A stretch of 62,784 bases of DNA, counting the filler, from a bacterium (GTDB taxonomy: Bacteria > UBP15 > UBA6099 > JAJRTR01): NCBI GenBank assembly GCA_024278215.1. It is 5 parts of 5 records of this genome, joined end to end, with 100 filler letters (N's around TTAATTAATTAA, not from the genome) between each part and the next. Parts side by side here need not be neighbours in the genome. Positions count along the whole stretch, not along the records: positions 27,626 to 42,324 come from JAJRTR010000169.1; 4 more parts are not named here. One strand, given 5' to 3'. Below are positions 10,205 through 53,361 of this stretch, one piece after another; the first letter of the stretch is position 1, and each line of letters starts with the position of its first letter. The position numbers and the translations under genes were made by a program. A model generated the notes under the pieces. The model worked only from the letters and a program-made list of their open reading frames with translations, searched no databases and had not been told where the DNA came from.

Positions 10205-11034
10205 TCGATCCTCACAAGTTCTGATACTGTTCGCCGCGTGTCGACTATCTCTCTTGATTTGCCGGTGTATGTGTCCGTGAAACGCCTGAGCCGTGTATCG
10301 GTCGTCACCATTTTCAGGAGATAGCCGCGTGCGCTGTCGAAATAAATATCTTCTTTATAGTGTAGTTCAAGGTAAAGGTTAAGGTACATGTCCCTGTCGG
10401 GGTTGTTGATATGATCTTTTACATTGTATTCGGCCGTGCCGTGAATATGCGCGCAGTTGCGTTTCAGCACTCTTGCGTTCCCGACATATTCCATCGTGAG
10501 GTCCAGATCGACAGATTTCTGCATGTAATCATTTGAAATAACGCGTTTCCATTTATCCCCTTTTGACAATCTGCCGGACGGCAATTCGGGAATTACAAGC
10601 CGCAGTTCCACAGGAATGCCCATGCCGTATATTTCCTCGATGTTTCCTTTGTTGTCGATACGGATATCGTTTTCGCCGAGGTTTTTGTAAAGAGACCGCG
10701 CGGCGCGTTCACGTGATGGCGCCGCAACGACTTTTATGCTGTAGCGACCGCCGATATTCTGCTTGATGAGCAGTTTTACATCGAGATTTATCTTTCGCGG
10801 GTTATACTCTGTTTTGCCGTCTTTGACAAGCCCGTACTGCCGTGTGACAGCATAGAAAAGAGTTTTATGAACTGGGAAATCGTACTCCAGCGACCTTCCG
10901 CAACCGCCGCCGAACACAAGCAGAAGAAAGGCTGCCGCGAAAAGTAGTCTTCTAAGACTTCTTTTTCGGTACACATGTGGCTGGAATAGAAAAATGGAAG
11001 ACACCGCCGGTTCCCGCTTTTGTGGGAATGACAT
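10201..11034 (-). CDS. Hypothetical lipoprotein (start uncertain)
   Basis: Basic N-region plus hydrophobic stretch ending GGGC, followed by a beta-rich body; co-oriented in the operon. Confidence 0.7.
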   Translation of the reverse strand: MSFPQKREPAVSSIFLFQPHVYRKRSLRRLLFAAAFLLLVFGGGCGRSLEYDFPVHKTLFYAVTRQYGLVKDGKTEYNPRKINLDVKLLIKQNIGGRYSIKVVAAPSRERAARSLYKNLGENDIRIDNKGNIEEIYGMGIPVELRLVIPELPSGRLSKGDKWKRVISNDYMQKSVDLDLTMEYVGNARVLKRNCAHIHGTAEYNVKDHINNPDRDMYLNLYLELHYKEDIYFDSARGYLLKMVTTDTRLRRFTDTYTGKSREIVDTRRTVSELVRIE

Positions 11035-11095
11035 TCATAAGGCAGATGAAATTAATAATTTGAATGTCATGCAAAATTATATACTATCGTTATCT

Positions 11096-11731
11096 TTACT
11101 TTTTCTTTACGTTCTTTTTCTTCGCAGACTTTTCAGCCGCTTTCCTAGAGGTTTTCTTTTTCTTCTTTTTCTTTGCGGCGGCCTTCTTCTTCTCATCCAT
11201 TACGAATTTATATCCAGCTTTAATGGCCTTCTCGTTAAGGACGGCGAAAGCCTTGTTCTTCTTTGCCGTAACACTCGCGACAGTGTCCTGGAGAACGCTC
11301 AGGGGCACAATGTCGGTGGCGGCGGCCAGCGCGCCGAGTATGACCATATTCGCCGAACGCGCCGATCCGATCTTCTCTGCTATGCTGCCTGCGGGAACAC
11401 GGTATTCCGTGACATCATTACGGGGAATCTTTTTCGAGATAAGCGTCGCGTTCGAGATGCAGACACCGCCGGATTTTATTACGTTCTGAAATTTCACGAG
11501 AGAAGGTTCATTCATTGCCACGAGCACTTCGGGTTGTGAGGCGATAGGCGATGCTATCTCATCGGTGGATACGCAGATAGTGCAATTGCACGTGCCGCCC
11601 CTGACTTCCGCGCCGTAGGCCGGAAGATAAGTTACGTGCTTATCCTGCGACATGCCGGCTGTCGCCAGGCAGTAGCCCATCATCAGCACACCCTGTCCAC
11701 CGAATCCGGCGAATATTGTTTTTGCAGACAT
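11096..11731 (-). CDS. 2-oxoacid:ferredoxin oxidoreductase gamma subunit with Lys/Ala-rich tail
   Basis: IFAGFGGQGVL, PAYGAEVRGGT, ANMVILGA; C-terminus KKKAAAKKKKKKKTSRKAAEKSAKKKNVKKK. Confidence 0.92.
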   Translation of the reverse strand: MSAKTIFAGFGGQGVLMMGYCLATAGMSQDKHVTYLPAYGAEVRGGTCNCTICVSTDEIASPIASQPEVLVAMNEPSLVKFQNVIKSGGVCISNATLISKKIPRNDVTEYRVPAGSIAEKIGSARSANMVILGALAAATDIVPLSVLQDTVASVTAKKNKAFAVLNEKAIKAGYKFVMDEKKKAAAKKKKKKKTSRKAAEKSAKKKNVKKK

Positions 11732-11732
11732 G

Positions 11733-12497
<765 letters not shown>

Positions 12498-25452: not shown

Positions 25453-26979
25453 ATGATGAGCCTGAAACCGGAAGAAGTAAGCTCAGTACTGAAAGACCAA
25501 CTGGAAAAGTACCAGTCCAAGGTCGAAATGACCGATGTGGGCACCATACTCCAGGTTGGTGACGGTATCGCACGAATATACGGCCTCAGCAGCGCGATGG
25601 CCGGGGAGATGCTCGAATTTCCCGGCGGTGTCAAAGGCATGGTTCTCAACCTTGAAGAGGACAATGTCGGCGCAGTTCTGTTCGGTTCCGATGTAGGAAT
25701 CAAAGAGGGCGACACGGTACGCTGCACGGGTAAAATCGCCTCCGTTCCTGTTGGTGAAGCCATACTCGGCAGAGTTCTCAACGCTGTCGGCGAGCCGATC
25801 GACAACAAGGGGCCCATCGCTTCAGATGAAAACCGTGTTATCGAAATAAAGGCGGTCGGCATCACGGAACGCCAGCCGGTAAAGCAGCCTGTCCAGACAG
25901 GTGTCAAGGCCATCGACGCCATGATCCCCATCGGACGCGGCCAGCGCGAACTAATCATCGGTGACCGCGGCACAGGCAAAACAGCTGTCGCCGTCGACGC
26001 TATTATTAATCAGAAGAGCTCAGACATGCTCTGCATCTATGTCGCTATCGGACAGAAGGCTTCAACGGTTGTCGGCATCCACGATGTTCTTTAAAAACAC
26101 GGCGCGATGGAATATACCACCATCGTTACCGCCAGTGCCATGGAACCAGCACCGCTCCAGTATGTAGCGCCATACGCGGGATGCACTATGGCTGAGTACT
26201 TCATGCTGAAAGGCAAGGACGTCCTTATAGTATACGACGATCTCTCGAAACAGGCTGTCGCGTACCGGCAGCTTTCACTACTGCTGCGCCGCCCACCCGG
26301 ACGAGAAGCATACCCCGGAGACGTTTTCTATCTGCACAGCAGGTTGCTCGAGCGAGCTGTCAAGCTCAGCGATGAAAACGGTGCCGGCTCGATCACCGCA
26401 CTGCCGATAATCGAGACACAGGCAGGTGACGTATCGGCATACATACCGACGAATGTTATTTCCATTACGGACGGACAGATGTTCCTTGAAACCGACCTGT
26501 TCTACGCCGGCGTAAGACCGGCCATCAATGTTGGTATATCCGTTTCCCGCGTAGGCGGCAACGCGCAGACGAAAGCTATGAAGAAGGTGGCCGGCAAGCT
26601 GCGGCTCGACCTTGCACAGTATCGCGAGCTCGAGGCATTCGCGCAGTTCGGTTCCGACCTCGACAAAGCCACACAGATGCAACTCACACGCGGTGCGCGC
26701 ATGGTCGAGATTCTCAAGCAGGATCAGTATGTACCGCTGACACTCGGTAAGCAGATATTGATTATTTTCGCAGGCAGTAATGGCTATATCGATGATGTGC
26801 CAATCGAAGCGGTAGCGCAATTTGAAAAAGAGTATTATCTATTTATGGATAGTAAATATCCTGATATTGCTAAGGAAATAGAAGAGTCAAAAGATATTTC
26901 CGAGAGCCTGGATAAAAAGATGAGAAAAGCGATAGAAGAATTCAAGTCACAGTTTAAACCGGCGGAAGCGAAAATTTGA
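25453..26979 (+). CDS. atpA: F1 subunit alpha, interrupted by one in-frame TAA at 26092-26094
   Basis: [28 protein letters not shown], ...[12 protein letters not shown]..., [15 protein letters not shown]. Both halves are in the same frame. Confidence 0.93.
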
Positions 26980-27525: not shown

Positions 27526-27625
27526 NNNNNNNNNNNNNNNNNNNNNNNNNNNNNNNNNNNNNNNNNNNNTTAATTAATTAANNNNNNNNNNNNNNNNNNN
27601 NNNNNNNNNNNNNNNNNNNNNNNNN
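27526..27625. other. Artificial contig linker
   Basis: 44 N + TTAATTAATTAA (stops in all six frames) + 44 N. Confidence 0.99.
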
Positions 27626-28359
27626 CTTTGCACGGCAATTCCGTCGACAACGGCCTGTGCGTTCTGTGCGTTCTGAATTATGTCCAGAACACCGGTGTTC
27701 AAGCCTGTCTCGCCTGCGCCAAGGACATCGAATCCGGTGGAATTGCCGATGTCGAGCAATTCTTTCTGGTCGCCGGTGTTTGCGTCCTTGATCACGAGAG
27801 TCTGGTCGCCGGACAACGGATCTTCAATGATGTATGCTTCGCCCCAGTCGCTGAAATCCTCGCCGGTACCACTCGTCGAGTTGTTGATCAATCCGGCAAG
27901 CTGCCCGAGCGTTTCGCCGCCTGTATACGTGATTGTGAAGACTTCGTCGGGGTTTGTGCCGTTGTCGTAGGTTATGTCGAATGTGCCGGCACCGCCCAGT
28001 GTGTATGCAGAGCCTTTTGTGCCGGACTGCATTATCTGTTCCTGCGCCAGTTGCAGTATCTCGACATCATGAGTCCCGGCGCTTGCCGCCGCGTTTGCCG
28101 TGCCTGTAACGACCGCTTCATTCGCCGAAGTCACCTTGTTGTCGAAGGCTACTCCGTTGACAAATGTTTTTAATGTGCCTTTTAGAGAAAGAAGGCTGCT
28201 GTTTACTTTCTGAATCTCATCTTTTTCATAGCCCAGTTTTGTCTGCTGCGTCTCGATCAGCCTTACCGGCGCACGTTCGATATACATCAACTGCTTAATG
28301 ATTGATTCTGTGTCCAGCCCTGAAAAAAGGCCTCCAAAACTGATTGCACTTGTGTCCAT
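27626..28359 (-). CDS. fliD: Flagellar filament cap protein FliD, N-terminal part (truncated by contig end)
   Basis: ISFGGLFSGLDTESIIKQLM.IERAP, VEILQLAQ, AQNAQAVVDGI; SD AGGAG and sigma-28 promoter upstream. Confidence 0.92.
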
Positions 28360-28417
28360 GACCACCACTCCTGTAATTTTTAGTAGTACACACGATTTCT
28401 CGGGTGTCTATTCTACA

Positions 28418-28444
28418 TTATCGGCTATTTCCGCTTTTACTTTA
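28418..28444 (-). promoter_or_regulatory. Sigma-28 (FliA/SigD) promoter of fliD
   Basis: Minus strand TAAA-gtaaaagcggaaata(15 nt)-GCCGATAA, an exact match to the consensus. Confidence 0.9.
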
Positions 28445-28585
28445 GGCATTCCCAGATATATTTACTACAATTATTTATTTATTTTATTGTATGTATGTAA
28501 GACGACTGATACAAATCACATTCGATGAAAATCCTTCAAAAGCTGATCAGCCCTCTTTTCAATATGGAAAATACAGTAATTGTTG

Positions 28586-29368
28586 TCAGTCATCAATCAC
28601 ATCGTCGAGCCTGAACAGGCGGTAGAGCGAAGTAACGCCTGAATATATGTGGTTCCAGTTTATTTTCTTTCCTTTAGGGACAAAAACAATGTCGCCGTCT
28701 CCGAGAGAGCAATTCTTTGGGAATTCCGCTTTCCCCAGCAGATCGGCGAAGTCGATTATTATCAGGTCGCCGCTCTCGGTGGGCGAAACTGTTATGTTGC
28801 CGCCGGACGCGGCAATGTTTTCTTCTGTGTCGGAAGCCTGATTGAAATCATAAGGGAACTCGACATCTTTCACGGGCGCTTTTATCAGTCCGACCTGGCT
28901 CTTTTTAGCGTTTTGTGCAAATCCGCCGGCGCGGCTGATTACATCGAATATTGTATCACTCCTGCGGATGTCGAAGATACCGGGTTTCTTCACGGCACCG
29001 AGCACGAAAACCCTTTCGAGCTTGAAATTCTTGATATTTACTGCAACTCTGGGGCCCTTCATATACGCTTCCAGCGATTTTGTGACGATCTCGCCCACCT
29101 GGCCGGCACTCATTCCGGACACGCGTATCTCTCCGAGCATCGGGTACGAAATACGTCCGTCCGGCCTGACCTGTGCACTCATCGACAGTTCGTCATAGGG
29201 CCAGACTTTTATCGTTAAAATGTCCAGCGGCTGTATAATGTATGATCTTCCACTGTCCGCAATCGCGGATGCCGGTTCCTTAGCCACAGCCTGGATATTG
29301 CCACATGGAAATAATGCGTACATGGCTGCACAAATAAATAAAGCAATTATTTTGTGTGAAATTTTCAT
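28586..29368 (-). CDS. Polysaccharide biosynthesis/export protein (Wza-like; Poly_export plus SLBB)
   Basis: Signal peptide, YIIQPLDILTIKVW, VRPDGRISYPMLGEI, VFVLGAVKKPG, AGGF, GDGDIVFVP. Confidence 0.88.
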   Translation of the reverse strand: MKISHKIIALFICAAMYALFPCGNIQAVAKEPASAIADSGRSYIIQPLDILTIKVWPYDELSMSAQVRPDGRISYPMLGEIRVSGMSAGQVGEIVTKSLEAYMKGPRVAVNIKNFKLERVFVLGAVKKPGIFDIRRSDTIFDVISRAGGFAQNAKKSQVGLIKAPVKDVEFPYDFNQASDTEENIAASGGNITVSPTESGDLIIIDFADLLGKAEFPKNCSLGDGDIVFVPKGKKINWNHIYSGVTSLYRLFRLDDVIDD

Positions 29369-29783
29369 TCTTTCAAGTTCGCTAAATACTGCGCGATCTC
29401 TGCTTCCCTTTACCTGTGTCTTAGAAATATGCGGGTTATATCCGTTTCTTCCACCAAATTATTTTCTTGCGTCTTTTCATCGTTGACACGAAACTTGTGT
29501 TATTATCACACAGCGCTAATGTTGCTTTTTGTATTTGTATATACTAATCCGAACTTGCCCGGAATGCAATATCCGGGCTGTTAACTCCGGCACTGCTGTG
29601 TAAATATTAACTGCCGCCATTGCGTTAAAACCGCAGTCATGAAATAATATCATAAGCCGATAGCAAGCGGCTCTCATAAAAGAAATCACTGAAATCAACA
29701 TAGTCGGGATATCTGCGAGATAGTTTATTACAGAAGATTTGCAACACTATTAGTCAATAATAGATGGCAAGGTGACGTGAAAA

Positions 29784-32700
29784 ATGAAGACATTTTTTAA
29801 ACTACCGAAAAAAGCGGAACAGAGGAACCCCATAATAGGCGTGATGATAGGTTTTGTTGTCGCGCTGTCGATAGGGTTGTGTTATCACGAGAAGGCCGCC
29901 GACATACCTGTTGCAGGTTGGGTATTTAATTTCCTCAACAGCCTTGAGTACAAGACATATGATTTGAGATTCAGGATCAGGGGCGCTTTGCCGGAGCAGG
30001 CTATCAGCAAAGACATTGTACTGCTTGATTATGACGATGAGACAGAGGAGTGGGCGCCTTTTCCGCCTGACAGGACGTATTACGCTGAAATAATCAAAGC
30101 GCTCGCCGACGAAGACTCGCGAACAAAGGCAACATTTTTCGACATATTTTTCTTCGATCCGTTCGGCCAGCAGGTCAATGAGGAAATGGCGGAGGTCTTC
30201 TATAAAAAATTTACGGAACTTCCGTCGCAGATCGAGAAGGACTCCGAGGTCACAGGAAGATTCAAGCAGGACATGTACGATGTTTACGAGATACTGTCCG
30301 GCGATAAGCCGGGCGGAGTGTCGCTTGCCAGGAAGAAGTTACAGGAAATCATCGACGACAAAGAGATCAAGGAAATGATCTCGTATTTCAACAATACCGC
30401 CGCATTTTTTCAGGAGCAGTCCGATATGTCGGAACTTGCGCCCAACCGAGACATCGTCCTGAACGACGCTATCACAAAAGCTCGAAATGTTTATCTCGCG
30501 CAGATCGTCAACAACGCTGAAAAGACTCCCATAAGCGTAGCAGACATTCTTTTCGATCCCCTGCTCCACAAGTCTTTCTCGAAACTGATAAAAATGCAGG
30601 ACCGCACGAAGACTGAAAACAGGAAAGAAGTCGAGACCAATTATGCGCTGCGGAACATGACCGAGGCGGACTTCAGGTATCTGCTCGAGGAGAGTGACAA
30701 GCCGGACATCGACGGTCGGAAACCTCTGCCGTTCACTGACGAGGTCAAGTCGGCCATTGTCGCCGAGATGGCAAAAGTAAAAAAAGATGTGGACAATGCG
30801 ATGGTGATAAACGACCATTTCGCCGTCTATATCACACCTCCCGATGTCGAGGACGTGCTCCAGAATCCGGTAATAAACGACCTGTTTAAAAAGCTCCTTA
30901 TGATGAAAGACCGCACGAAGACCCGGCGCAGAACCGAAGTTCTTGTCAACTATGCTCTCAATACTTTTACACCTGCTGATTTCGATAAAATTCTCGAAAA
31001 GGGAAAGGTCGAGTGCAAAGCGCTGGGAAAACAAACTTGTGAGAACAACATGCGCGGCGACTGTCAGGAGACTGTTCTTGGGGAATGTGCGGACCCGACA
31101 TCCGACGAGTGCAACAGGATGATCAAGGAAAAATGTGACGCGGCTGTTGACGAAGAGTGCGCGGATAAGACGACATCGGAATATCTTGATATCGCCCGGC
31201 AGGCCTGCGGTGTGCCTGCTGAAAATGAGGGAGTTACAGATGGAGACTGCGGCGGCGAGTGCTATAATTCGTGCGCCTCGGATTGCAGCGCGGTATGCGA
31301 GAGCAAGAGTACGGAAATCTGTAAAGATATTGCCGAGAATAAACGTAAAGAATGTATAGAAACATATTCGCAGGAATGTGAAAGACCGTGCAACAGAAGA
31401 TGCAAAATCGCTTTCACCTTCGACGAATATAACGCAGTGCAGGCCGAAAAAGATATGCTGGAGAAGGAAGGCGAAAGAAAAATATCGCCGGAGCTCGCCA
31501 GGGCCATCGACATAGGAAACGTAATGCCTGTGCCGGCGGAAAAACTGCTTGACAAATACCGGAAACTGATAAATATGCAGTCGCCGGCAACTTTTATTGC
31601 AAAAGGTACTGCGGGTCCGGGATATGTTAAACCTGAATTCCAGAAATACGATGGCACTATTCGTACTGCTGCGCCTGCTTCGGGGTTCAGGGGCAAACTC
31701 TTCCTTCACATCGACATGTTGCTCGCCATGCGCTATTTCGGTATCGGCCCCGACGACCTGATGTTCTATCCCAACAAGATCATCATGAACAATTGCCGCC
31801 GACCCGGCAGCGATGATACTTTTTCTGTCACGATTCCTCTGTACAGGCGTGGCACAGTCCTTGTCAACTGGGCCGGTACTTACTATGAACCGAATCAATA
31901 TGATCACCGCAGTTTCAGGAAGATATATGAGAATGCCGTTAAGTACAACATAATCAGAAAGACTGAGCGTGGCGAAGAGTTGACCACACTTGAAAAACAG
32001 AGAATGGCGGGAATCAAAAAAGAAGAAATTGCGAAGATAAAAAAAGAAATCGAGTTTTTTAAAGGAAAAATAAGCATGACGGGGCTTACCGCTGTCGGCA
32101 CTCACGACCTCAACCCCGTTCCGTTCCATCCGAGATACCCCCTTGTCGGTATGCACGCTAATTTCGTCAATATGGTGATCACACAGAACTTCATCCACAC
32201 CGCGCCGTTCATTCTGTTTATATTCGTCATTGTATTTCTGGGCGTTTTCGCAGGATATATAGGCGGTTCGAGGGAACAATTGTCCGGCGCTTTGATAACC
32301 GGTGGTTCGAGTCTTGGGTTCGCCGTTATTTCGATTCTGGTTTTCAACTATGCAAATATGTGGATGCCGGTCGTCCCGGTTTTTGTGGCTCTTATCGCCA
32401 TATACCTGCTGGTTGTTCTATACCGGTTCATGACTGAAGGGCAGGAAGCGAAACGAATGAAGAGCATGTTCGGCACTTATGTTAATCCCGAGGTTGTTGA
32501 TGTTCTTATCGAGAATCCTGAAATGCTGCAACTCGGCGGAAAGAGAATGGACCTCTCATGCACGTTCATCATGGCGTCCGGCCCCGGCCTCCAGACCGAG
32601 GACGCCGAGATTCTGGTCGACCGTCTCAACGAATTTTTTACCGAAATGACCGATGCGATTTTTGAGTATGACGGCACACTCGACAAGTACGAAGGACACA

Positions 32701-33329
32701 TCATCATGGCGGTTTACGGGGCACCTGTCCATTATGACGACCATCCGCAAAAGATATGTATGTCGTGCGCCGCGATGAAAAAGAAGATGAGCGCTTTGCG
32801 CGTGAAATGGAAAGAAGAAGGCAAGGAAACGATTAACATAACAGCAGGGGTAAACACGGGACCGATGATCGCCGGAAACATGGGGTCCGCTTCGAGATTC
32901 AATTACACGATCATGGGTGACTCGGTCAACCTCTCCGCGCGTATCCTCGGTGCAAGCATACAGTACGGCATCGAGTTTATGATCAGCGAATATACTTATG
33001 AACGCGCCAGGGATGCTATTGTCGGCAGGCTCGTGGACGACATTGTTGTTGTCGGTAAGGAAGAGCCTGTAAAGGTCTATGAGATCATCGCTATGGCTGG
33101 CGAAGAGCTCGAGCCAGGAATGCGGGAATTCATCGACGCCTACGAAAACGGCTTCAATCTTTATACAGAACGAAAATGGGACGAAGCCGTTGCGTCGTTC
33201 GAGAAGGCGCTCGAACACAGAGACGACAAACCGACAAAGATGCTTATAGAAAGGTGTGAAAAATATAAAGAGGAACCGCCGGAGGATGGTTGGAAGGGCG
33301 AGTTCGTGCTTACGTCGAAGGGACTGTAA
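29784..33329 (+). CDS. CHASE2-type membrane class III nucleotide cyclase, subunit A (C2-like; both metal-binding Asp lost), with Cys-rich insertion and C-terminal TPR-like region
   Basis: LEYKTYDLRFRIRG, DIFFFDP, LVNWAG, DLNPVP...GMHAN, 3 TMs, MFGTYVNPEVV, DKYEGH, GVNTG..AGNMGS..RFNYTIMGDSVNLSARI. Confidence 0.92.
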   Translation: MKTFFKLPKKAEQRNPIIGVMIGFVVALSIGLCYHEKAADIPVAGWVFNFLNSLEYKTYDLRFRIRGALPEQAISKDIVLLDYDDETEEWAPFPPDRTYYAEIIKALADEDSRTKATFFDIFFFDPFGQQVNEEMAEVFYKKFTELPSQIEKDSEVTGRFKQDMYDVYEILSGDKPGGVSLARKKLQEIIDDKEIKEMISYFNNTAAFFQEQSDMSELAPNRDIVLNDAITKARNVYLAQIVNNAEKTPISVADILFDPLLHKSFSKLIKMQDRTKTENRKEVETNYALRNMTEADFRYLLEESDKPDIDGRKPLPFTDEVKSAIVAEMAKVKKDVDNAMVINDHFAVYITPPDVEDVLQNPVINDLFKKLLMMKDRTKTRRRTEVLVNYALNTFTPADFDKILEKGKVECKALGKQTCENNMRGDCQETVLGECADPTSDECNRMIKEKCDAAVDEECADKTTSEYLDIARQACGVPAENEGVTDGDCGGECYNSCASDCSAVCESKSTEICKDIAENKRKECIETYSQECERPCNRRCKIAFTFDEYNAVQAEKDMLEKEGERKISPELARAIDIGNVMPVPAEKLLDKYRKLINMQSPATFIAKGTAGPGYVKPEFQKYDGTIRTAAPASGFRGKLFLHIDMLLAMRYFGIGPDDLMFYPNKIIMNNCRRPGSDDTFSVTIPLYRRGTVLVNWAGTYYEPNQYDHRSFRKIYENAVKYNIIRKTERGEELTTLEKQRMAGIKKEEIAKIKKEIEFFKGKISMTGLTAVGTHDLNPVPFHPRYPLVGMHANFVNMVITQNFIHTAPFILFIFVIVFLGVFAGYIGGSREQLSGALITGGSSLGFAVISILVFNYANMWMPVVPVFVALIAIYLLVVLYRFMTEGQEAKRMKSMFGTYVNPEVVDVLIENPEMLQLGGKRMDLSCTFIMASGPGLQTEDAEILVDRLNEFFTEMTDAIFEYDGTLDKYEGHIIMAVYGAPVHYDDHPQKICMSCAAMKKKMSALRVKWKEEGKETINITAGVNTGPMIAGNMGSASRFNYTIMGDSVNLSARILGASIQYGIEFMISEYTYERARDAIVGRLVDDIVVVGKEEPVKVYEIIAMAGEELEPGMREFIDAYENGFNLYTERKWDEAVASFEKALEHRDDKPTKMLIERCEKYKEEPPEDGWKGEFVLTSKGL

Positions 33330-33472
33330 CCTGCATTGCATAATATGGAAATGTGTGATTTATATGGTAGTAGATAATAGTAGCTTACAGGTATATTAAT
33401 AGCTATAAATGAAAAGATAAATAATCTCATGATAAGTATTGACGGGCAAGTTGATTCTTTTGGAGGAAACAG

Positions 33473-36361
33473 ATGAAGTTACCGTTCAAACTTCCGCATA
33501 AAATCGAGGAACGCAACAGACTGGTAGGATTCATGATAGGTATGGGGATGGCTGTTGTCTTCAGCATTCTATACATTGCAGGCCCGCTGAAGGTTTTCAC
33601 AGACTGGGACCTCGACGCAAAGTTCAATATTCGAAACAACTGGCTCAACAGCATTCACGATGCTGAAAAGAAGTTTGAAATATTACCTGTCAATGAAGAC
33701 ATGGTGTTCATCGAAATCGACGACTCGACCCTCGACTGGGAGGGCACTTTCCCGGACGATCCGGTTTATTATATCGACTTGATAGACAAGATGGGACGGG
33801 AGCAATTCAATGCGCTCGCAATGATGTTCAGCATTGATTACTCTCACGAATTCGGGCGAAAAGTCGACCCGGACAACAGTATGTATTTTCAGGATGTTTT
33901 TGGGAAGATTGCATGGATGCTGGGCTACAATGCAAGCAAGAAAAGCGACATGGTCGACCAACTGAGTTATTTGCGTGAATTCCTTGACGACCCGGGCGCC
34001 GGCGCGTCGAAATCTGAAATCGCGGCGAGAATCGAAGAGCTCGTGTTCAGTGATACATTCCAGGAAATAGATTCCTACATGAACATGGTAAGTGCGTTTT
34101 CACAGCAGAATGCCGAGTTGAACGAACTGGCGCCCGACAGAGAAAAGATGCTGGCGAATCACATGGAAGGTGCCGGAAATGTTTTTTTTATGTATAAGTC
34201 GGAAAATATGGCCGTTGTCCCTTACGATGTCGATGACCTGAGAAACAACGCCGGCATCAGGGAGATGCTTCTGAATGTGCTCAGACGCCCAACCCTCAAC
34301 AGACCGGAAAATGAAAAACTCGCGCAGGTTTATGAGGCATATTTCAACCTTCTGCCGGACGAACTCAAGTTGCTGATAGAAGAAAAAAACAATCCTTTCC
34401 CGAAAGATGTAATTGAAAGATTGAAAAGTGATTACAAGAAAAGGCAGGCTGAACTCGAAGAGTTCCGGCTGCAAAACAAATATGTCGAGGTAGATATTCC
34501 ACCGGGGGTCGAAGATAATTATCTGCACCTCCGAAAAGCTGTGCCTGTTAATCCCACAATAGGAAGAAAAACAGTAGGGCAGGGCATGTTTAAAGCTGAG
34601 ATTTCATCAGACGGAAAACTCCGCAGAATAGCGCCGGTGGCGATATATGCAGGTAAGATGTATCCACATGTCGACTTCCTGCTGGCCCTTCAGTATCTCA
34701 ATGTTCCTCTCTCGAATATAACATTTGAAAAACGACGGATCATTCTCAAAGATGCCGTTAATCCTCGCACCGGCGAAAAGAAGGACATCGTGATCCCACT
34801 GCTCGAGGACGGCACCATGATTGTAAACTGGGCCGGGCTCTGGGCCGACACCTCGATCCCTTTCGGACATAAAAGCCTGAAAAATATATATATGAATATC
34901 GGCAGACTCAACAACTACAAAGCTCACCAGGACATATTGAGTTTGCCGAAAGAAGAAAGAGAAGCAAAACTCGCCGAGCTGCCCGCAGAAGTTATCGAGC
35001 TAAGGGAATCCATCACCGCCGATGAGGCTCAGACAAGGAAAGCGGAACTCGAGAACCTGACCGGTAAGATATTGATAGTCGGCCGCACCGCTGTCGGCAC
35101 TGAAGACCTGAACCCGACACCGCTCGAACCCAGGTATCCGCTGCTCGGTCTTCACGCGAACGTCATAAACACTATTGTCCAGGACATATTCATAAAATAT
35201 GTAAAGTGGTATGTAGTGATTGTTATTTTCTTTGTTTTGTCTCTGTCGGTCGGCATGGTCGGTGGCGTTGTGCAGAATAAATCGACCGTCGTCACAGGTC
35301 TCATCAACTTCCTTTTCATGGGATTTGTGATCTCTGTTTACGGTGCGTTTGCCTTCTACATGTTTGTTTTTCGTTATACGAGCCTGCCTATTCTCGCGGC
35401 TGTTCTGCTGGTCGTGCTAACCTTTCTCCTTGTCTTCATATACAGGTTTGTGACCGAAGAGCAGGAGAAGAAAAAGATGAAAAACATGTTCGGCACTTAT
35501 GTCAACAAGGAAGTTGTCGAATCTCTTATCGAAGACCCGGACAAATTGAAACTCGGCGGCGAGTGGATGGAATGTACAGTGTTTTTCTCCGACGTAGCGG
35601 GTTTCACGTCGATATCCGAAAGCATGCCGCCTGAAGACCTTGACGAACTTCTTAACGAATACCTCACGGCAATGACCGACATAATTTTCGAATATGGCGG
35701 AACGCTTGACAAGTATATCGGCGATGCCGTAGTCGCAATATTCGGCGCTCCGATACCGTTCCCCGAGAACGATCACGCCATCCGCGCATGTCTTGCCACA
35801 ATCGACATGCAGGAAAAACTCGAGCAAATGCGCCAGGTCTGGCGCGAACAGGGCAAAACGGAACTTACCGCGCGCTGCGGCGTCAACACAGGTATGATGA
35901 TCGCCGGGAACATGGGGTCGGTAAAGCGTTTCAATTACACCGTTGTCGGCGAGAATGTCGAATATGGCGAACACCTCGAGAGCGGCGGCAAGAAATGGGG
36001 CACGGTGATGACCATAAGCGAACCCACTTACAATTATGCGAAAGATGTCATTCATACGCGGTTGCTTGATGTCGACTGGCTCGAGAGCAAACCTGTTCGC
36101 ATCCTTGAAATAATGGGTAGAAAAGAAGAACCCCTTGCCGACAATATTAAAAAGGGAATTGCGGTATATGAAGAAGGTGTTCAACTTTATTTCGCTCGTG
36201 AATTCGACAAAGCAATAGCAAAATTCAAAGAAGTTTTTGAACATATCCCTGAAGACCTGCCTTCCCAAAGAGCTATAGGCAGATGCGAAGACGCAAAAGA
36301 GAATCCCCCTGATGAAGAATTCGACAAACGCGCCGCACACATCGGCGCAATTAAGGTCTGA
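33473..36361 (+). CDS. CHASE2-type membrane class III nucleotide cyclase, subunit B (C1-like; catalytic Asn and Arg lost)
   Basis: Paralogue of the upstream gene: VFIEIDD, IVNWAG, DLNPTP..YPLLGLHAN, TVFFSDVAGFTSISE, DKYIGDAV, ARCGVNTG, NYTVVGENVEYGEHLE. Confidence 0.93.
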   Translation: MKLPFKLPHKIEERNRLVGFMIGMGMAVVFSILYIAGPLKVFTDWDLDAKFNIRNNWLNSIHDAEKKFEILPVNEDMVFIEIDDSTLDWEGTFPDDPVYYIDLIDKMGREQFNALAMMFSIDYSHEFGRKVDPDNSMYFQDVFGKIAWMLGYNASKKSDMVDQLSYLREFLDDPGAGASKSEIAARIEELVFSDTFQEIDSYMNMVSAFSQQNAELNELAPDREKMLANHMEGAGNVFFMYKSENMAVVPYDVDDLRNNAGIREMLLNVLRRPTLNRPENEKLAQVYEAYFNLLPDELKLLIEEKNNPFPKDVIERLKSDYKKRQAELEEFRLQNKYVEVDIPPGVEDNYLHLRKAVPVNPTIGRKTVGQGMFKAEISSDGKLRRIAPVAIYAGKMYPHVDFLLALQYLNVPLSNITFEKRRIILKDAVNPRTGEKKDIVIPLLEDGTMIVNWAGLWADTSIPFGHKSLKNIYMNIGRLNNYKAHQDILSLPKEEREAKLAELPAEVIELRESITADEAQTRKAELENLTGKILIVGRTAVGTEDLNPTPLEPRYPLLGLHANVINTIVQDIFIKYVKWYVVIVIFFVLSLSVGMVGGVVQNKSTVVTGLINFLFMGFVISVYGAFAFYMFVFRYTSLPILAAVLLVVLTFLLVFIYRFVTEEQEKKKMKNMFGTYVNKEVVESLIEDPDKLKLGGEWMECTVFFSDVAGFTSISESMPPEDLDELLNEYLTAMTDIIFEYGGTLDKYIGDAVVAIFGAPIPFPENDHAIRACLATIDMQEKLEQMRQVWREQGKTELTARCGVNTGMMIAGNMGSVKRFNYTVVGENVEYGEHLESGGKKWGTVMTISEPTYNYAKDVIHTRLLDVDWLESKPVRILEIMGRKEEPLADNIKKGIAVYEEGVQLYFAREFDKAIAKFKEVFEHIPEDLPSQRAIGRCEDAKENPPDEEFDKRAAHIGAIKV

Positions 36362-36710
36362 TTCGTATGTGAAAGTTCAGTATATGCCCTGGATACTGAG
36401 CGCAACGACCATTCTACAGGCTCACATCGAAAAGCGGAGCAGAAATATAATAACGGCTCTTCGCTGAATTGTATGGGTAAAGCGGCGATGAATCGCCGCA
36501 CACCAAAGCGCTTCGCGCCTCTACTATCGCATGTCGCCCAATGATAATCAGTCTTTCTGCAATGAGTCTTGATCGACTTTTGGGGATTGCACCCGGTTCA
36601 GTTAGCCCGCATTGGTGAAATATGCGGGTTAGAAGATAGCGATGGCTTTGTTGAAAAGTGATTTTTGTTACCTTAGAATTAACACAAAAGCAATTGAAGA
36701 CAGCATCGTG

Positions 36711-39700
36711 ATGAGAACAAAACATAATAGAGTGTTCAGTACAGTCGCCGCCAGGGCGCTTGCCGCATTTATTATCGTATCGGTCTGCTTTGCGTTGATC
36801 CTGTATGTTTCAGGATGTGCAGGGTTCGAGTCATGGAAAAGCGAAAGGCTGAGCGAGTTGTATCGGTCTGATGAGGCAGGTGATAAGAGCGGGGTTGTGT
36901 TTACGCTCGTCGGCGAGCATTCGGTAATCGGAGTCGGAGCGAATACTGTCCGCGAGGATCGCGAAAAGTGGAAAGCGACATTCAGCATGAGTTCGCTGGA
37001 GATGCAGCGCGGGGCCGATTTTCACCTTGACGCGAAAGTGAAGATAGTTGATAAGGAGATACTGAGACTGATCGAGAAGTCCGGGTCGGATGAATTATAT
37101 ATGCTGGCGGTGATCGCGCCGATCTACAACAGGGAAGGACATTTCAGGCAATTTACCAATATTCAGATGTCGTGTATGCTCACGCCGACCGGCATGCCGA
37201 TTGAAACATTGCAGGAAAACCTGCCTGCGAAATTTAAAAGCAATCATTACCGTACACCGTGGGAGATGGTGGACACAAGGACGCCGGCTGAAGCGATTGA
37301 TGGTGATGTGATCAGATTTTCCATAGACTCGCGTGTACCCGGCGACATCGATGACGGCCACTATCGAATAGCGATCGAGATGGGCGCGAGAATCGACGGT
37401 CGTTTGATCAAGCTTGAACTCATTCCGTATCTCGGCTCGATTCTGCTTGACGAGGAGAAGAGCAGGGATGTTTTTCTTACCGCGAATGCCACTGAAAGAA
37501 GCAGGATCAACATAAATTATTCGCCTGTGTTCACCGTCGGCGCTCCCGCGCCTCCGAGGATGCCCTGGACGCTGCTCGGGACGGTCGACACGCACGGCAC
37601 AAGGGGCATTGTCGCCCGCGAGGACAAAGCTTATTTCGCCATCAGCTATTCCGGCCTGCGCCAGGATAAGATGATTATCCCGATGAACAACCGCTACGGC
37701 GCTCCGATCACATATCGACTCGAACCCGATTTCCCAACGCAGAATAAGGAACAGGAATCATTTGAAAAAACATATTATTACAAAGGGCCTACCGTTCTTT
37801 CTCACATTCAGCTTTCACCGGTGGAACTCGATTATTCGTCAGGTGAAATGAGTGTGGTGGTCCACACGCCGTCGGGCGGAACAGATGATCTGGGCCGCGC
37901 TCCGTTCATCGGAAACACAAAAACGGGAGCGACGACCGGTGGGAATTATTTCGATTACCGTTTCAGCGAATACGGCCATTATGTGATCGAGATGAAAGGC
38001 TACATAAATGATGTGTTTGGAAGGACATATTTCGGCGGCGGCACTTATGACGTCTGGGTCGCGCTTCCGCTCAGCATGAGCACAAGCTGCAAGCCGGGTA
38101 TGCCCTACTCGGTGGGCATGAGCTATTCGCCGAGAGTGACTGTGCATCCGGGTGTGCCCGCGGACATGAGTTACGAAGTGAAGCTGTACAGGAACTCGTC
38201 GAAAGAAGACGTGAAAGTGTGGAAGCACACAGGCCGCGCGAATAATTACGGCTACTACTTTCCGCGTGAAAATTTCGAGCCGATGGTTTTCGACGCGCCG
38301 GGCGAATACCGTGCGGAAGTTACCGCGACCTATTGGGACAAAGACGGCAGGCTCTGGATGGGCGGCCAGACCAGCGCGAGCGTAGTCGCCACGCGCGACA
38401 GCGACGTGACGGTGCACGGCGATATCATGTTCTTCCAGTCGCGGCCCTTCGATGTTAATGTGCCGCTGGATTTCAGGCCGAGGTTCGAGCTCAGGGCGAG
38501 CGGACTTGCAGGCACACAGGAAATCAACGACATGACGATGACCCAGATCAGAATGGGAATGCCGTACAACAGCAACGACGTCCTGTTTTTCTCACCGGCG
38601 CTGTTGTGGAACGTCGGCGAAATGTATCCTCTATTATCTTTTTCCACAACCGACAGGTCCGTCACAGGCGAGGTGCTGAATAACTTTCCGCCGCTCGATA
38701 GGTTTCTCAATGAACATTTCGGTGAAACGATCGACGACTTGAATGATTGCTGGGGAAAGGTCTATGCGGTCGACACCTGCGATTCCATGCTGCTCGATAT
38801 GGTCGAGACTTCGCTGCACAAGGCCGCCGACAATCTCACTGTGATGTCCATGGGCGCGAACAGGTACCAGCCCCATGCCTTCCAGGAAGACCAGGAGATC
38901 GTCAGTTACTATTATTCATCTTCGATCAAGCCCGGCCTGCTGAGCCGGAATGTTGTCTCCGATTCCACCAACTCGACATCCTACTGGATAATTACGCCGA
39001 ACTTTTTCGGGCACCAGTTCGGCTCGGGCGAAAACGGCGATGTGCGTGGAGATTTGTATCACCTGATGGGCGGGGTTGTATACAGGAACTTGAAGACCGG
39101 CGTGAATAAATACGGCATATATCATTCATCGGCGCTGGTGGCAGACGGCAGGGACGAGAACAACAGGGTAGAAGCGCCCCTGAAATCGCCGCTGGTGACG
39201 GTGGGCGGGCGTGATTACTACATGTTTCCGGGCATGTCGCCGGAGCAGGGCGCTATCTACGAGACGGGAGATAAGATAGTCAGCGGCGGATTCCTCTTCC
39301 CTTCAATCTCCGCCGATTATGAGTTCAGGCTCGTGCCGCCTTCCGGCAAACCTCTGATATACAAAGGTAAATCGAACGACTTCGGATTATTCAAGCCGAT
39401 GCCCGGCTACATCGCGCGGGAACCGGGACTGTACAGGGTATACATGAAATTCTTTGCCGGGGGCAGGGAGGGCGCGACGCTCGGCAAACCCGACGGCTGG
39501 TACCACCTCTATGTTGTGGAAGAAAACTCGCCATACAAGATCACATTCGACATGCCGCTGGTCTCCGAGTTCGACCCGAAAGATGTACTCGAATTGCATG
39601 GGAGTCTGCCCGAGGGCTGGAAAGACGGGAAACTGTATTACACGGTAGTCAGCCCCGGCGTCGTCTATTCCGACGGCGAGTTGCCGATAGAAGACGGCAG

Positions 39701-40673
39701 GTTCACATACAGGTATGCGCCGCTTCACGCGAATGTCTATTACAAGAGCCTGGAACTGTTCGACAAAGTGAATAACAGGCCGGATTTCTGGGACACGGTA
39801 GTCTTTTCGTTTTTTGTAGACGGTGTATCGCGAGACGGAAAAAGAATCACTGCCGCCGCCGAAATACTTGCGCGCGGAAACAAAGTATATTACTTTGAAG
39901 GCGAATGGCCCAAGGGACCGCCGCCGAAACTTCGCGCGAAAAAAATGTACGGTCGCTTTTCAATCGACAGATCGGCATTCCCTTACTCGAAAGACGACAT
40001 AAAAGTACCCGGCGATACCGGTAACCTTATTAAAAAGAAATGCGGCTCGTGCCATGCGTTGCCGTCTGCCGGGCGCACATTCAGCGCGTGGAGCGGAATC
40101 GTCAACTGGCATATCGAGAAGAATTGGCTATGGCTGCGTCCCGCGAATCGCAGGGCAATAGTCGATGCGCTCTACGAAAAGTTTCCGCCGTCGACGTCCG
40201 ATGATGCAGCCATGCGCGAAAAAATGCTTATGCAAAAAGGCGATAAGCTATTTAAAAAACGGTGCCTGTCGTGTCACCCGTCCGAACCTGCAAGGGACAG
40301 ACCCAGGTCACGGCTCGGCTGGAAAAATATAATCGAGAGACACGAATACTGGGGCGAAAAAATGCGCGGCGACCCGATGTACGCGAATGATGAAGAAAAG
40401 AAAACACTCTTTGAATATCTTCACCTTGTTTCAGGTTCGGAACCGGAGTTGCCGGCCGGTGATCCTCGTTCGCCAAAAAAGAAATTTCAGAAATTGTGCT
40501 TCGACTGCCATGCGACAACTCTCGAAACATACAACTGGAGTAAGGCCGACAGGCGTTTCCTCGACATGCACATAAAGAATAAATTCGATGCCGGCAAGCA
40601 ACATGACGCAGAGGCTGTTCTCAAGTATCTTCTGGGCGATGATAACAGGAAAAAGAGCGGGAACGAAGAATAG
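36711..40673 (+). CDS. Large lipoprotein with three C-terminal c-type heme motifs
   Basis: Lipobox-like VSG-C after a hydrophobic stretch; CGSCH (40041), CLSCH (40263), CFDCH (40497). Confidence 0.85.
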   Translation: MRTKHNRVFSTVAARALAAFIIVSVCFALILYVSGCAGFESWKSERLSELYRSDEAGDKSGVVFTLVGEHSVIGVGANTVREDREKWKATFSMSSLEMQRGADFHLDAKVKIVDKEILRLIEKSGSDELYMLAVIAPIYNREGHFRQFTNIQMSCMLTPTGMPIETLQENLPAKFKSNHYRTPWEMVDTRTPAEAIDGDVIRFSIDSRVPGDIDDGHYRIAIEMGARIDGRLIKLELIPYLGSILLDEEKSRDVFLTANATERSRININYSPVFTVGAPAPPRMPWTLLGTVDTHGTRGIVAREDKAYFAISYSGLRQDKMIIPMNNRYGAPITYRLEPDFPTQNKEQESFEKTYYYKGPTVLSHIQLSPVELDYSSGEMSVVVHTPSGGTDDLGRAPFIGNTKTGATTGGNYFDYRFSEYGHYVIEMKGYINDVFGRTYFGGGTYDVWVALPLSMSTSCKPGMPYSVGMSYSPRVTVHPGVPADMSYEVKLYRNSSKEDVKVWKHTGRANNYGYYFPRENFEPMVFDAPGEYRAEVTATYWDKDGRLWMGGQTSASVVATRDSDVTVHGDIMFFQSRPFDVNVPLDFRPRFELRASGLAGTQEINDMTMTQIRMGMPYNSNDVLFFSPALLWNVGEMYPLLSFSTTDRSVTGEVLNNFPPLDRFLNEHFGETIDDLNDCWGKVYAVDTCDSMLLDMVETSLHKAADNLTVMSMGANRYQPHAFQEDQEIVSYYYSSSIKPGLLSRNVVSDSTNSTSYWIITPNFFGHQFGSGENGDVRGDLYHLMGGVVYRNLKTGVNKYGIYHSSALVADGRDENNRVEAPLKSPLVTVGGRDYYMFPGMSPEQGAIYETGDKIVSGGFLFPSISADYEFRLVPPSGKPLIYKGKSNDFGLFKPMPGYIAREPGLYRVYMKFFAGGREGATLGKPDGWYHLYVVEENSPYKITFDMPLVSEFDPKDVLELHGSLPEGWKDGKLYYTVVSPGVVYSDGELPIEDGRFTYRYAPLHANVYYKSLELFDKVNNRPDFWDTVVFSFFVDGVSRDGKRITAAAEILARGNKVYYFEGEWPKGPPPKLRAKKMYGRFSIDRSAFPYSKDDIKVPGDTGNLIKKKCGSCHALPSAGRTFSAWSGIVNWHIEKNWLWLRPANRRAIVDALYEKFPPSTSDDAAMREKMLMQKGDKLFKKRCLSCHPSEPARDRPRSRLGWKNIIERHEYWGEKMRGDPMYANDEEKKTLFEYLHLVSGSEPELPAGDPRSPKKKFQKLCFDCHATTLETYNWSKADRRFLDMHIKNKFDAGKQHDAEAVLKYLLGDDNRKKSGNEE

Positions 40674-40777
40674 TCAACGACCGACCATAAGTTGTTATAG
40701 AGCTTTGGTGAAATGTGCGGATTACGGTAAGATATCACGGTAGTATTGTTCTCAATGAAAAATGACAGGACCATATT

Positions 40778-41407
40778 ATGAAAGAAAAAATCACGAATAT
40801 ACCATCAAAAATTGTGGCGCTTGGCCTGAATTATCGTGACCATGCCAAAGAATTCAAACTGCCTGTTCCTGAAGAACCGATAATTTTCATGAAGCCGCCC
40901 ACGGCTGTGATTTTCGATGGTGACGACATCGTCTATCCCGCGCAGGCGACCCGTGTGGATTACGAAGCGGAACTCGCGATAGTTATAGGCAAAAAAGCTA
41001 AAAATATAAATGCCGCAGACGTTCCTGATTACATTCGCGGCTATACCTGCCTCAACGACATCACGGAACGGCATATCCAGGGCCGCGACGGGCAGTGGAC
41101 ACGCGCGAAGAGTTTCGACACTTTCTGTTCGATCGGACCTGTTGTCACCGACGAGATAGACCCGGCAAATGTGGCAGTGAGGTCGTACCTTAACGGAGAA
41201 CTCAAGCAGGATTCGAACACGAGGAACCTGATATTTACGATTGGAAAGATCGTGGAGTTCGTATCCGGCGTTATGACGCTTCTGCCCGGCGACGTCATTG
41301 CGACCGGCACACCTTCGGGCATCGGGCCTATGTTGCCGGGAGACGAGATAGTCATTGAAGTTGAAGGCATAGGCAAATTGACAAACCGTGTTGTCAAAGC
41401 AGATTGA
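40778..41407 (+). CDS. Fumarylacetoacetate hydrolase family protein
   Basis: GLNYRDH, FMKPPT, DYEAEL, NDITER, WTRAKSFDTF, GDVIATGTPSG. Confidence 0.95.
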   Translation: MKEKITNIPSKIVALGLNYRDHAKEFKLPVPEEPIIFMKPPTAVIFDGDDIVYPAQATRVDYEAELAIVIGKKAKNINAADVPDYIRGYTCLNDITERHIQGRDGQWTRAKSFDTFCSIGPVVTDEIDPANVAVRSYLNGELKQDSNTRNLIFTIGKIVEFVSGVMTLLPGDVIATGTPSGIGPMLPGDEIVIEVEGIGKLTNRVVKAD

Positions 41408-41449
41408 TATAAGAGCCTCCGCAGCAATATTCCGGCGCTTGCGTGGCTC

Positions 41450-42324
41450 TTACATCGCTTTTTTAATTATTTCCACCGCTTCATCAAACGTCATTTCTTC
41501 AGGGTTATATATAAGAGAACCGTCGTTAATAGCGAGTTTTGCGATTTCCTCTATTTTATCTGCTGTCACACCGGCTTCTTTCAATGTCGTGGGCAAGCCG
41601 CAAATCTGCTTGAGATGTTTGCTGAGATTTCGCACGGCGTCGATAGCGGCGCGGGCCTTCACAAGAGAATTGCCCGGCACATTCGAACCGCACAGGTACG
41701 GCGCGAGTTCGGCGATAATGTCGGCACGTTTCGTGAGGTTGTGTTCCATGCCGAAGGGAAGGAAAATGTTGTTGGCTGTTCCGTGCGGAACGTGGCACGC
41801 GCCCCCTGCGGCGTGAGCCAGCGAATGGACCATGCCGACCATCGAGTTGGAAAACGCCATTCCGGCGATCAGTGCCCCGTTCGCCATGTTCATCCTTGCG
41901 TCGACATCGCCGCCATCTTTCACGCATTTAACAAGATTTGCCGTAATCAGCTTGATCGCTGTAAGCGCCAGAGAATCCGAAACGGGGTTTTTGCCGAGGC
42001 AATAATATGCTTCGCAGGCGTGTGTGAGTGCATCCATGCCGGTAGCGGCGGTGATCTGGGGCGGCAGAGTCTGTGTCATGCGCGGGTCGATTATCGCAAC
42101 TTTTGGATATAGTTTATCTGAAGTGAAAGCCATTTTTTCTTTTGCATCGACATTATAGACGACAGCGACAAGCGTGACTTCCGAGCCGGTGCCGGCGGTA
42201 GTGGGCACAGCGATGAAGGGCTGAAGGTCTTTGTTCACGCGGTCCGCGCCCTGGAATTGCATCAGGTCGGTTGTGCCTTCCGTGACGACAATATTAGCGC
42301 ACTTCGCCGTGTCCATACTGCTGC
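41450..42324 (-). CDS. Iron-containing alcohol dehydrogenase, C-terminal part (5' end lost at contig end)
   Basis: SSMDTAK, VPTTAGTGSEVT, GMDALTHA, HSLAH...HGTAN. Confidence 0.92.
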
Positions 42325-42424
42325 NNNNNNNNNNNNNNNNNNNNNNNNNNNNNNNNNNNNNNNNNNNNTTAATTAATTAANNNNNNNNNNNNNNNNNNNN
42401 NNNNNNNNNNNNNNNNNNNNNNNN
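42325..42424. other. Artificial contig linker
   Basis: N-TTAATTAATTAA-N spacer. Confidence 0.99.
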
Positions 42425-47586: not shown

Positions 47587-47686
47587 NNNNNNNNNNNNNN
47601 NNNNNNNNNNNNNNNNNNNNNNNNNNNNNNTTAATTAATTAANNNNNNNNNNNNNNNNNNNNNNNNNNNNNNNNNNNNNNNNNNNN
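47587..47686. other. Artificial contig linker
   Basis: N-TTAATTAATTAA-N spacer. Confidence 0.99.
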
Positions 47687-53261: not shown

Positions 53262-53361
53262 NNNNNNNNNNNNNNNNNNNNNNNNNNNNNNNNNNNNNNN
53301 NNNNNTTAATTAATTAANNNNNNNNNNNNNNNNNNNNNNNNNNNNNNNNNNNNNNNNNNNN
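53262..53361. other. Artificial contig linker
   Basis: N-TTAATTAATTAA-N spacer. Confidence 0.99.

Follow-up and report, generated by a model that had tools for sequence, protein, structure and literature searches.

Two adjacent CHASE2 cyclases with reciprocal catalytic losses: a predicted heterodimeric adenylate cyclase receptor in bacteria

The genome assembly GCA_024278215.1 of an uncultured bacterium (GTDB lineage UBP15; UBA6099) holds two neighbouring genes, here called A and B, which encode CHASE2 receptors with class III cyclase domains. We analysed them in a stretch of 62,784 nucleotides, hereafter the window. The full catalytic set of both metal Asp residues and the transition-state Asn and Arg is present in neither chain and is complete only in A and B together. 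A and B are probably partners in a single membrane receptor, an adenylate cyclase that is active only as the A/B heterodimer with one active site. Conservation, synteny, phylogeny and a structural model support this interpretation, which was first put forward in a first-pass annotation of the window.

In class III cyclases, each active site is made up of residues from both partners of a dimer. In the mammalian transmembrane adenylyl cyclases (tmACs), one half contributes the metal Asp residues and an Arg, and the other contributes the Lys, Asp/Thr, Asn, Arg and Lys. We fixed the catalytic positions of A and B by alignment to the Pseudomonas aeruginosa CyaB (3R5G), the Cya2-derived chains (2W01 and 6FHT) and CyaC (1WC0). 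In the order of first metal Asp (D1), substrate Lys (K), second metal Asp (D2), phosphate-side Arg (R1), Thr (T), Asn (N) and Arg (R2), A reads MKHTTNR and B reads DKDRTEH, while the canonical relatives read DKD[R/G]TNR. The motifs and codons named by the first-pass annotation in both genes are all present where it placed them (Table 1).

Thus, neither chain has the residues of a self-sufficient homodimeric class III enzyme. In A, Met and His replace the two Asp, and the loop after the first of them is rebuilt to LASGPGL versus the canonical SDVAGFT. In B, Glu and His replace the Asn and the Arg. The adenylate-type specificity pair of Lys and Asp/Thr is present in A as K968 and T1042, by the rule given in PMC6005667.

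The cyclase part of A matches 38 solved cyclase sequences and that of B 48. For both, the best matches are CyaB (3R5G), Cya2 from Synechocystis (2W01) and CyaC from Spirulina (1WC0), with expectation (E) values of 2.9e-26 to 4.5e-16 for A and 4.6e-36 to 1.9e-27 for B. The B part also matches the C1 domain of the adenylyl cyclase AC5 and the alpha chains of the soluble guanylyl cyclase (sGC), whereas the A part matches the sGC beta chains and neither AC5 C1 nor sGC alpha. These domain matches are consistent with the assignment of B as the C1-like half and A as the C2-like half.

The two residue patterns are conserved. The 120 best proteins from each cyclase-part search gave 227 distinct relatives, and the last 330 residues of these and of A and B were aligned. 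Among the 229 aligned proteins, 189 are canonical, 22 are A-type and 18 are B-type, with A and B included in their types. The A-types are 52–83% identical to A in the cyclase part. They have Leu or Met at the first Asp position and invariant K, T, N and R, and vary at the second Asp position (H, S, R, A or K) and at the R1 Arg position (T, N, S or M).

The B-types are 55–74% identical to B in the cyclase part, and their D, K, D, R and T are invariant. Their Asn position is occupied by Glu (11 of 18) or Asp (7 of 18) and their Arg position always by His (18 of 18). In the canonical relatives, the transition-state Asn and Arg columns are invariant (189 of 189). The column of the late 'GK' Lys holds K or R in 187 of the 189 canonical sequences and in all 22 A-types, and in none of the 18 B-types.

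A blind scan covered every column with at least 90% conservation among the canonical sequences. Eleven of them are lost in the A-types, nine in the B-types and none in both. The A-type losses lie on the side of the metals and the phosphate loop, and those of the B-types on the side of the Asn, Arg and Lys and in the C-terminal tail. This is the reciprocal and non-overlapping loss of half-sites in paralogous domains that marks the C1/C2 type. Because the 40 deviants among the 229 proteins form just two families of fixed pattern, the losses are not chance decay. The description of the two genes as exactly complementary mirror images in the first-pass annotation goes slightly too far: it holds for the losses, but not for everything kept, since B retains the Lys and the Thr as well, and the R1 Arg is not essential in this family.

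The A/B family is small: a profile search of 1.84 billion cluster representatives gave four B-type sequences, two of them fragments, and three A-type sequences among the best 150. The rest of the best 150 all carry the canonical seven residues but for five exceptions, four being single-residue deviants (one of which, P0280, is also without the GK Lys) and one an incomplete alignment. As a separate observation, the C-terminal tail carries a W-x-G motif, with its W in 189 of 189 canonical CHASE2 cyclases and 22 of 22 A-types. In the B-types the motif is F-x-variable, with F in 18 of 18, and lies around 36320-36330 in the window.

The two genes also stay together. We scanned metagenomes with a seed of 38 residues specific to B, drawn from 14 of the 18 B-type sequences, and obtained nine loci with a B-type gene. 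An A-type gene stands directly upstream on the same strand in all eight loci that have upstream DNA, and the ninth (L081) is a 2.9-kb contig whose upstream sequence is too short to judge. Since L086, L087, L088 and L090 are near copies, the eight loci represent about five lineages. Their A and B open reading frames (ORFs), taken from stop to stop, are 3–24 nt apart or overlap by 14 nt, and the proteins are 47–62% identical to the window's A and B over the full length.

Neither A nor B was seen alone in the metagenome loci where the DNA allowed the check. Besides A and B, the related loci have no flanking gene in common with the window at E 1e-8, and the neighbours vary between loci. The expectation of the first-pass annotation that adjacent pairs with the same reciprocal substitutions would be found elsewhere, and that orthologues would keep the pattern rather than occur singly, is thus borne out in eight of eight informative loci, always A then B, and in the 22 A-types and 18 B-types.

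Eight further A/B pairs have an identical size on record for the longest contig, which suggests that the two members of each share a contig. Among proteins of 1685–4810 residues, a search for fused A-B forms gave two matches, both of other architectures, which is weak evidence of absence. Directly after the pair in locus L082, at 10544-12142 on the same strand (+), lies a gene for a GAF-GAF-HD (HD_5) protein that was not seen in the window and could be a cyclic-nucleotide-responsive phosphohydrolase. In L087, a type I phosphodiesterase-family protein follows the pair. Between the window and the related loci, no gene for a cyclic AMP (cAMP) receptor or a phosphodiesterase is conserved beside the pair.

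The phylogeny is in keeping with a single duplication. The tree included the 22 A-types, the 18 B-types and 36 of the 189 canonical sequences, of which 14 were hand-picked to include the nearest canonical relatives and 22 were random. It was built with a careful search under the model LG+C20+F+G4 and is unrooted. The A-types form one group and the B-types another, both with support of 100/100. A single branch parts A and B from all canonical sequences with support of 97/93, and the same branch has 95 and 91 in quick trees. With a root among the canonical enzymes, which are far more diverse, A and B would be sister groups that arose by this duplication.

In a quick tree, the major subclades of A and B match, and the pairs inferred from the longest contigs fall at corresponding places. 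This fits inheritance as a pair. Because A and B are each other's nearest relatives among the CHASE2 cyclases, their split arose independently of that in the tmACs, and the independent split after gene duplication that was suggested in the first-pass annotation agrees with the supports on all three branches.

We modelled the cytosolic parts of A and B with ATP and two Mg in three runs with three controls. The A/B complex scored 0.79 at best (0.73, 0.79 and 0.79 in the runs), versus 0.00 for the best control. In the calibration of the tool, 58 of 80 solved complexes attained this mark, as did 2 of 110 mismatched pairs, counts that apply only roughly here as own alignments were supplied and the ligand was included. 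The runs share at least 95% of contacts, with a predicted local distance difference test (pLDDT) value of at least 89 for the partner.

The most confident contacts in the model run from T1042, K968 and N1049 of A to residues 747-750 and 711-712 of B, and R1053 of A and residues 710-713 of B also appear in the modelled interface lists. As modelled, these contacts are the geometry of the proposed composite site, in line with the A+B site of the first-pass annotation. The pass of the model may reflect the likeness to many solved class III dimers and is no proof of A-B binding or preference.

Both genes encode the parts expected of a membrane receptor. As first annotated, the two reading frames are long and intact (1181 and 962 residues), and both proteins exceed the curated Pfam cut-offs of 26.3 bits for CHASE2 (PF05226) and 21.9 bits for the class III cyclase (PF00211), A with 87.4 and 44.4 bits and B with 70.6 and 66 bits, respectively. 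In a hydropathy scan the two share one layout of an N-terminal hydrophobic segment, a long CHASE2 region, a hydrophobic cluster, the cyclase domain and a tail of about 90 residues. Hydrophobic segments thus stand before and after the CHASE2 region in both, as called with a simple Kyte-Doolittle window and no dedicated membrane predictor. The start codons of A and B look right because the N-termini fit the consensus of the relatives, and GGAGGA precedes the ATG of gene B.

In the proposed receptor, each subunit would have one membrane helix, a large external CHASE2 region, three membrane helices, the cyclase domain and a short TPR-like tail. B would supply the metal-binding D707 and D751, the intact phosphate loop and R801. 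A would supply the adenine-specifying K968 and T1042, the transition-state N1049 and R1053 and the late K1092. Together, these contributions would make one complete ATP site across the dimer interface. The second, symmetry-related pocket would be degenerate, with M930, H972 and T1020 of A and K747, T823, E830 and H834 of B, and unable to bind metals.

The A/A and B/B homodimers are predicted not to be good enzymes, because A/A would be without metal ligands and B/B without the Asn and Arg. ATP is the predicted substrate because of the Lys/Thr pair (by the rule in PMC6005667), and the product would be cAMP. The two differing CHASE2 regions could plausibly sense different inputs, in which case the heterodimer would integrate two signals.

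Several points weigh against the obligate heterodimer. First, the loss of the R1 Arg in A was dropped as a catalytic loss. The Thr substitution listed for it in the first-pass annotation is present, but it has little weight, since 81 of the 189 canonical CHASE2 cyclases have Gly here, and so do the Cya2-derived chains as aligned. Second, B keeps the substrate Lys and the Thr, and its replacements by Glu/Asp and His are themselves conserved, so a B/B dimer may be active with altered chemistry. Third, the complex model would probably accept A/A or B/B too.

Fourth, a genome-contig scan with the full B-family alignment gave at least 80 loci, and the 80 listed hold canonical enzymes with no A-type or B-type among them, though its patterns also fit canonical enzymes and the result is silent on how many species carry the pair. 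Lastly, the spacer between the genes is 143 nt long in the window and holds a weak promoter-like match, so the co-transcription of A and B is putative. The promoter scan of the locus gave weak consensus matches only and is uninformative on an operon, and no terminator-like site was found in the spacer by the promoter and terminator scan. A look-up of sequencing runs containing the 6.6-kb stretch of the two genes gave none, RNA included.

The replacements in B are conserved while the lost positions of A drift, so the second pocket may be functional in its own right, or else B may keep some activity alone. A wider reading joins the former option with two others, taking the second pocket as a conserved allosteric ligand site that is the bacterial counterpart of the forskolin pocket, the pair as a two-input receptor and its present state as a pre-fusion stage. 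We regard this joint reading as tentative and rather doubtful.

The putative allosteric pocket would be lined by the invariant K747, T823, E/D830 and H834 on the B side and by a fixed hydrophobic Leu/Met on the A side. The two-input view draws on the CHASE2 ectodomains, as A and B are 26% identical over the first 369 aligned positions versus 37% over the last 594, and on the 18-Cys insert of A. In the pre-fusion view, the pair would be a living example of the duplicated, subfunctionalised and unfused stage through which animal adenylyl cyclases have been proposed to arise.

In a rival reading that we judge unlikely, the B/B homodimer is the enzyme, with Glu/Asp and His replacing Asn and Arg, and A is catalytically dead and modulates B, for example as a dominant-negative partner or a scaffold. 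B does keep all residues that contact the metals, the phosphates and the base (D707, K747, D751, R801 and T823), and the conservation of its replacements in 18 of 18 B-types suggests a function. However, this leaves unexplained why A keeps exactly what B lost, with N1049 and R1053 in 22 of 22 A-types and the GK Lys as K or R in 22 of 22. The metal positions of A, by contrast, drift among H, S, R, A and K. The Asn and Arg lost from B are invariant in 189 of 189 canonical enzymes.

It is very unlikely that neither A, B nor the pair makes a cyclic nucleotide and that the cyclase domains serve a heteromeric CHASE2 receptor as modules for dimerisation or nucleotide binding. Each chain is incomplete individually, and the lack of a cAMP receptor or phosphodiesterase gene conserved beside the pair would suit such a role. 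Yet A and B conserve the full catalytic set between them with losses that never overlap, which is hard to explain without catalysis, and the relative in L082 has the GAF-GAF-HD protein directly downstream. That A and B are decaying duplicates on the way to pseudogenes, for which the catalytic residues missing from both might speak, is scarcely credible and rejected, as the frames are intact over 1181 and 962 codons, the patterns persist in relatives of only about 50% identity, the two genes stay side by side while their surroundings change and the full-length identities of 47–62% argue against the relatives being one recent clone.

The heterodimer that we favour resembles several known cyclases in part. 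Like the tmACs, it would have one composite site, to which one half gives the metal Asp and Arg residues (as B) and the other half the rest (as A), and a degenerate second pocket. In the tmACs, the adenine binds on C2 and the phosphates on C1, and the leftover degenerate pocket binds forskolin (PMC8815786, PMC5699072). They differ in being a single chain of TM1-C1-TM2-C2 with two six-helix anchors, while A and B are separate ORFs, each with CHASE2 and 1+3 helices.

Like the alpha and beta subunits of sGC, A and B are two homologous subunits from separate genes with one active site, A matching beta and B alpha. The beta/beta homodimer of sGC is inactive (PMC3591389), and the sGC specificity pair is Glu-Cys/Ser with cyclic GMP (cGMP) as the product (PMC6005667). 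As membrane CHASE2 receptors with the Lys/Thr pair, A and B contrast with the soluble, cGMP-making sGC and its H-NOX, PAS and coiled-coil domains. Thus, A and B share the working principle of the tmACs and sGC but are not members of either, as their layout and gene structure differ and their split is separate.

Among CyaB, Cya2 and CyaC, the best sequence matches to both cyclase domains, Cya2 also has the CHASE2-membrane-cyclase layout of A and B (PMC6005667). These three differ in carrying the full catalytic set on each chain and two sites per homodimer, while A and B each have half (PMC6005667, PMC5699072). The chytrid rhodopsin-guanylyl cyclase NeoR with RGC1 or RGC2 offers another likeness, being a microbial obligate heterodimer with clustered genes and two different sensors (PMC8815786). 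Unlike A and B, they are eukaryotic proteins with cGMP as the product. No residue of known importance for cyclisation is missing from RGC1 or RGC2, and their obligate pairing is thought to have another cause (PMC8815786), whereas in A and B the pairing is implied by the missing catalytic residues.

The bacterial class III enzymes are described as two-site homodimers and the mammalian enzyme as two concatenated monomers of bacterial type (PMC5699072, PMC11606603, PMC9433096). A one-site heterodimer whose second pocket is allosteric is regarded as an animal feature derived from bacterial monomers (PMC5699072, PMC11606603). Our literature searches, which did not extend to older reviews in subscription journals, gave no natural bacterial pair with reciprocal catalytic losses, and the priority is not certain. 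Older surveys reportedly speculated on heterodimers among incomplete bacterial cyclases. In the accessible part of PMC2447327, the word 'heterodimer' has 0 occurrences.

The window consists of several contigs joined with N runs, at 27526-27625, 42325-42424, 47587-47686 and 53262-53361, and each join is a pair of 44-N runs with 12 bases between. Genes A and B both lie within one piece of 14,699 bases (27626-42324), which is also the size on record for the contig of either protein. Because of the joining, genes from separate pieces may not be adjacent in the genome, as with those of the ATP synthase and the cyclase pair. The features of the pair are listed in Table 1.

Table 1. Features of genes A and B, in window coordinates.
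Feature	Position	Strand	Method
Gene A: CHASE2 receptor with C2-like half cyclase; keeps Lys, Thr, Asn, Arg and GK Lys, without both metal Asp	29784..33329	+	
A, N-terminal hydrophobic segment, residues 14-36; predicted membrane helix before CHASE2	29823..29891	+	Kyte-Doolittle
A, Cys-rich insert within the CHASE2 region, about residues 391-540	30954..31403	+	
A, three-segment hydrophobic cluster, residues 798-886, between CHASE2 and cyclase domain	32175..32441	+	Kyte-Doolittle
A, M930, first metal Asp position; Leu or Met in 22/22 A-types	32571..32573	+	
A, K968 (substrate Lys, 22/22 A-types) to H972 (codon at 32697; second metal Asp position; H/S/R/A/K among A-types)	32685..32699	+	
A, T1042 (adenine-side Thr), N1049 (codon at 32928) and R1053 (codon at 32940), transition-state Asn and Arg; invariant in 22/22 A-types	32907..32942	+	
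A, K1092, 'GK' Lys (V-x-G-K motif); K or R in 22/22 A-types	33057..33059	+	
A-B spacer, 143 nt	33330..33472	+	
Gene B: CHASE2 receptor with C1-like half cyclase; keeps both metal Asp and Arg, without Asn, Arg and GK Lys	33473..36361	+	
B, D707, first metal Asp, intact FSDVAGFT loop; invariant in 18/18 B-types	35591..35593	+	
B, K747 to D751 (codon at 35723; second metal Asp); K747 and D751 invariant in 18/18 B-types	35711..35725	+	
B, R801, phosphate-side Arg; invariant in 18/18 B-types	35873..35875	+	
B, T823, E830 (Asn position) and H834 (Arg position); G-E-H motif invariant	35939..35974	+	

The Cys-rich insert of A has 18 Cys in 150 residues and, among 11 proteins checked, is common only to the nearest relative, P0122 (1187 residues). 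The other long A-types P0129, P0130 and P0138 have different, Cys-poor inserts. The CHASE2 region of A also holds an internal repeat of 56 residues (248-303 and 351-406, at about 30525-30692 and 30834-31001 of the window on the + strand), whose copies are 50% identical with an E value of 5e-18 in a two-segment comparison.

Directly downstream of B, at 36642-40673 (+), is an ORF of 1343 residues that is not conserved beside the pair in the related loci. It has weak cytochrome c/CXXCH matches near the C-terminus only, and its first 1190 or so residues are without a family match. On other pieces of the window, an ORF of 972 residues at 42660-45578 (+) has no Pfam match at E 0.001, and the ATP synthase alpha subunit at 25453-26979 (+) appears as two ORFs of the same frame, split by an in-frame TAA at 26092-26094. 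This TAA lies within a conserved stretch and could reflect a sequencing error, a pseudogene or recoding.

In summary, a conserved two-gene pair shows that a C1/C2-style split can evolve and persist in bacteria. With its two separable subunits, the pair is a simple system for work on one-site cyclases and the pseudo-sites in them, and a heteromeric CHASE2 receptor is a further prediction from it.

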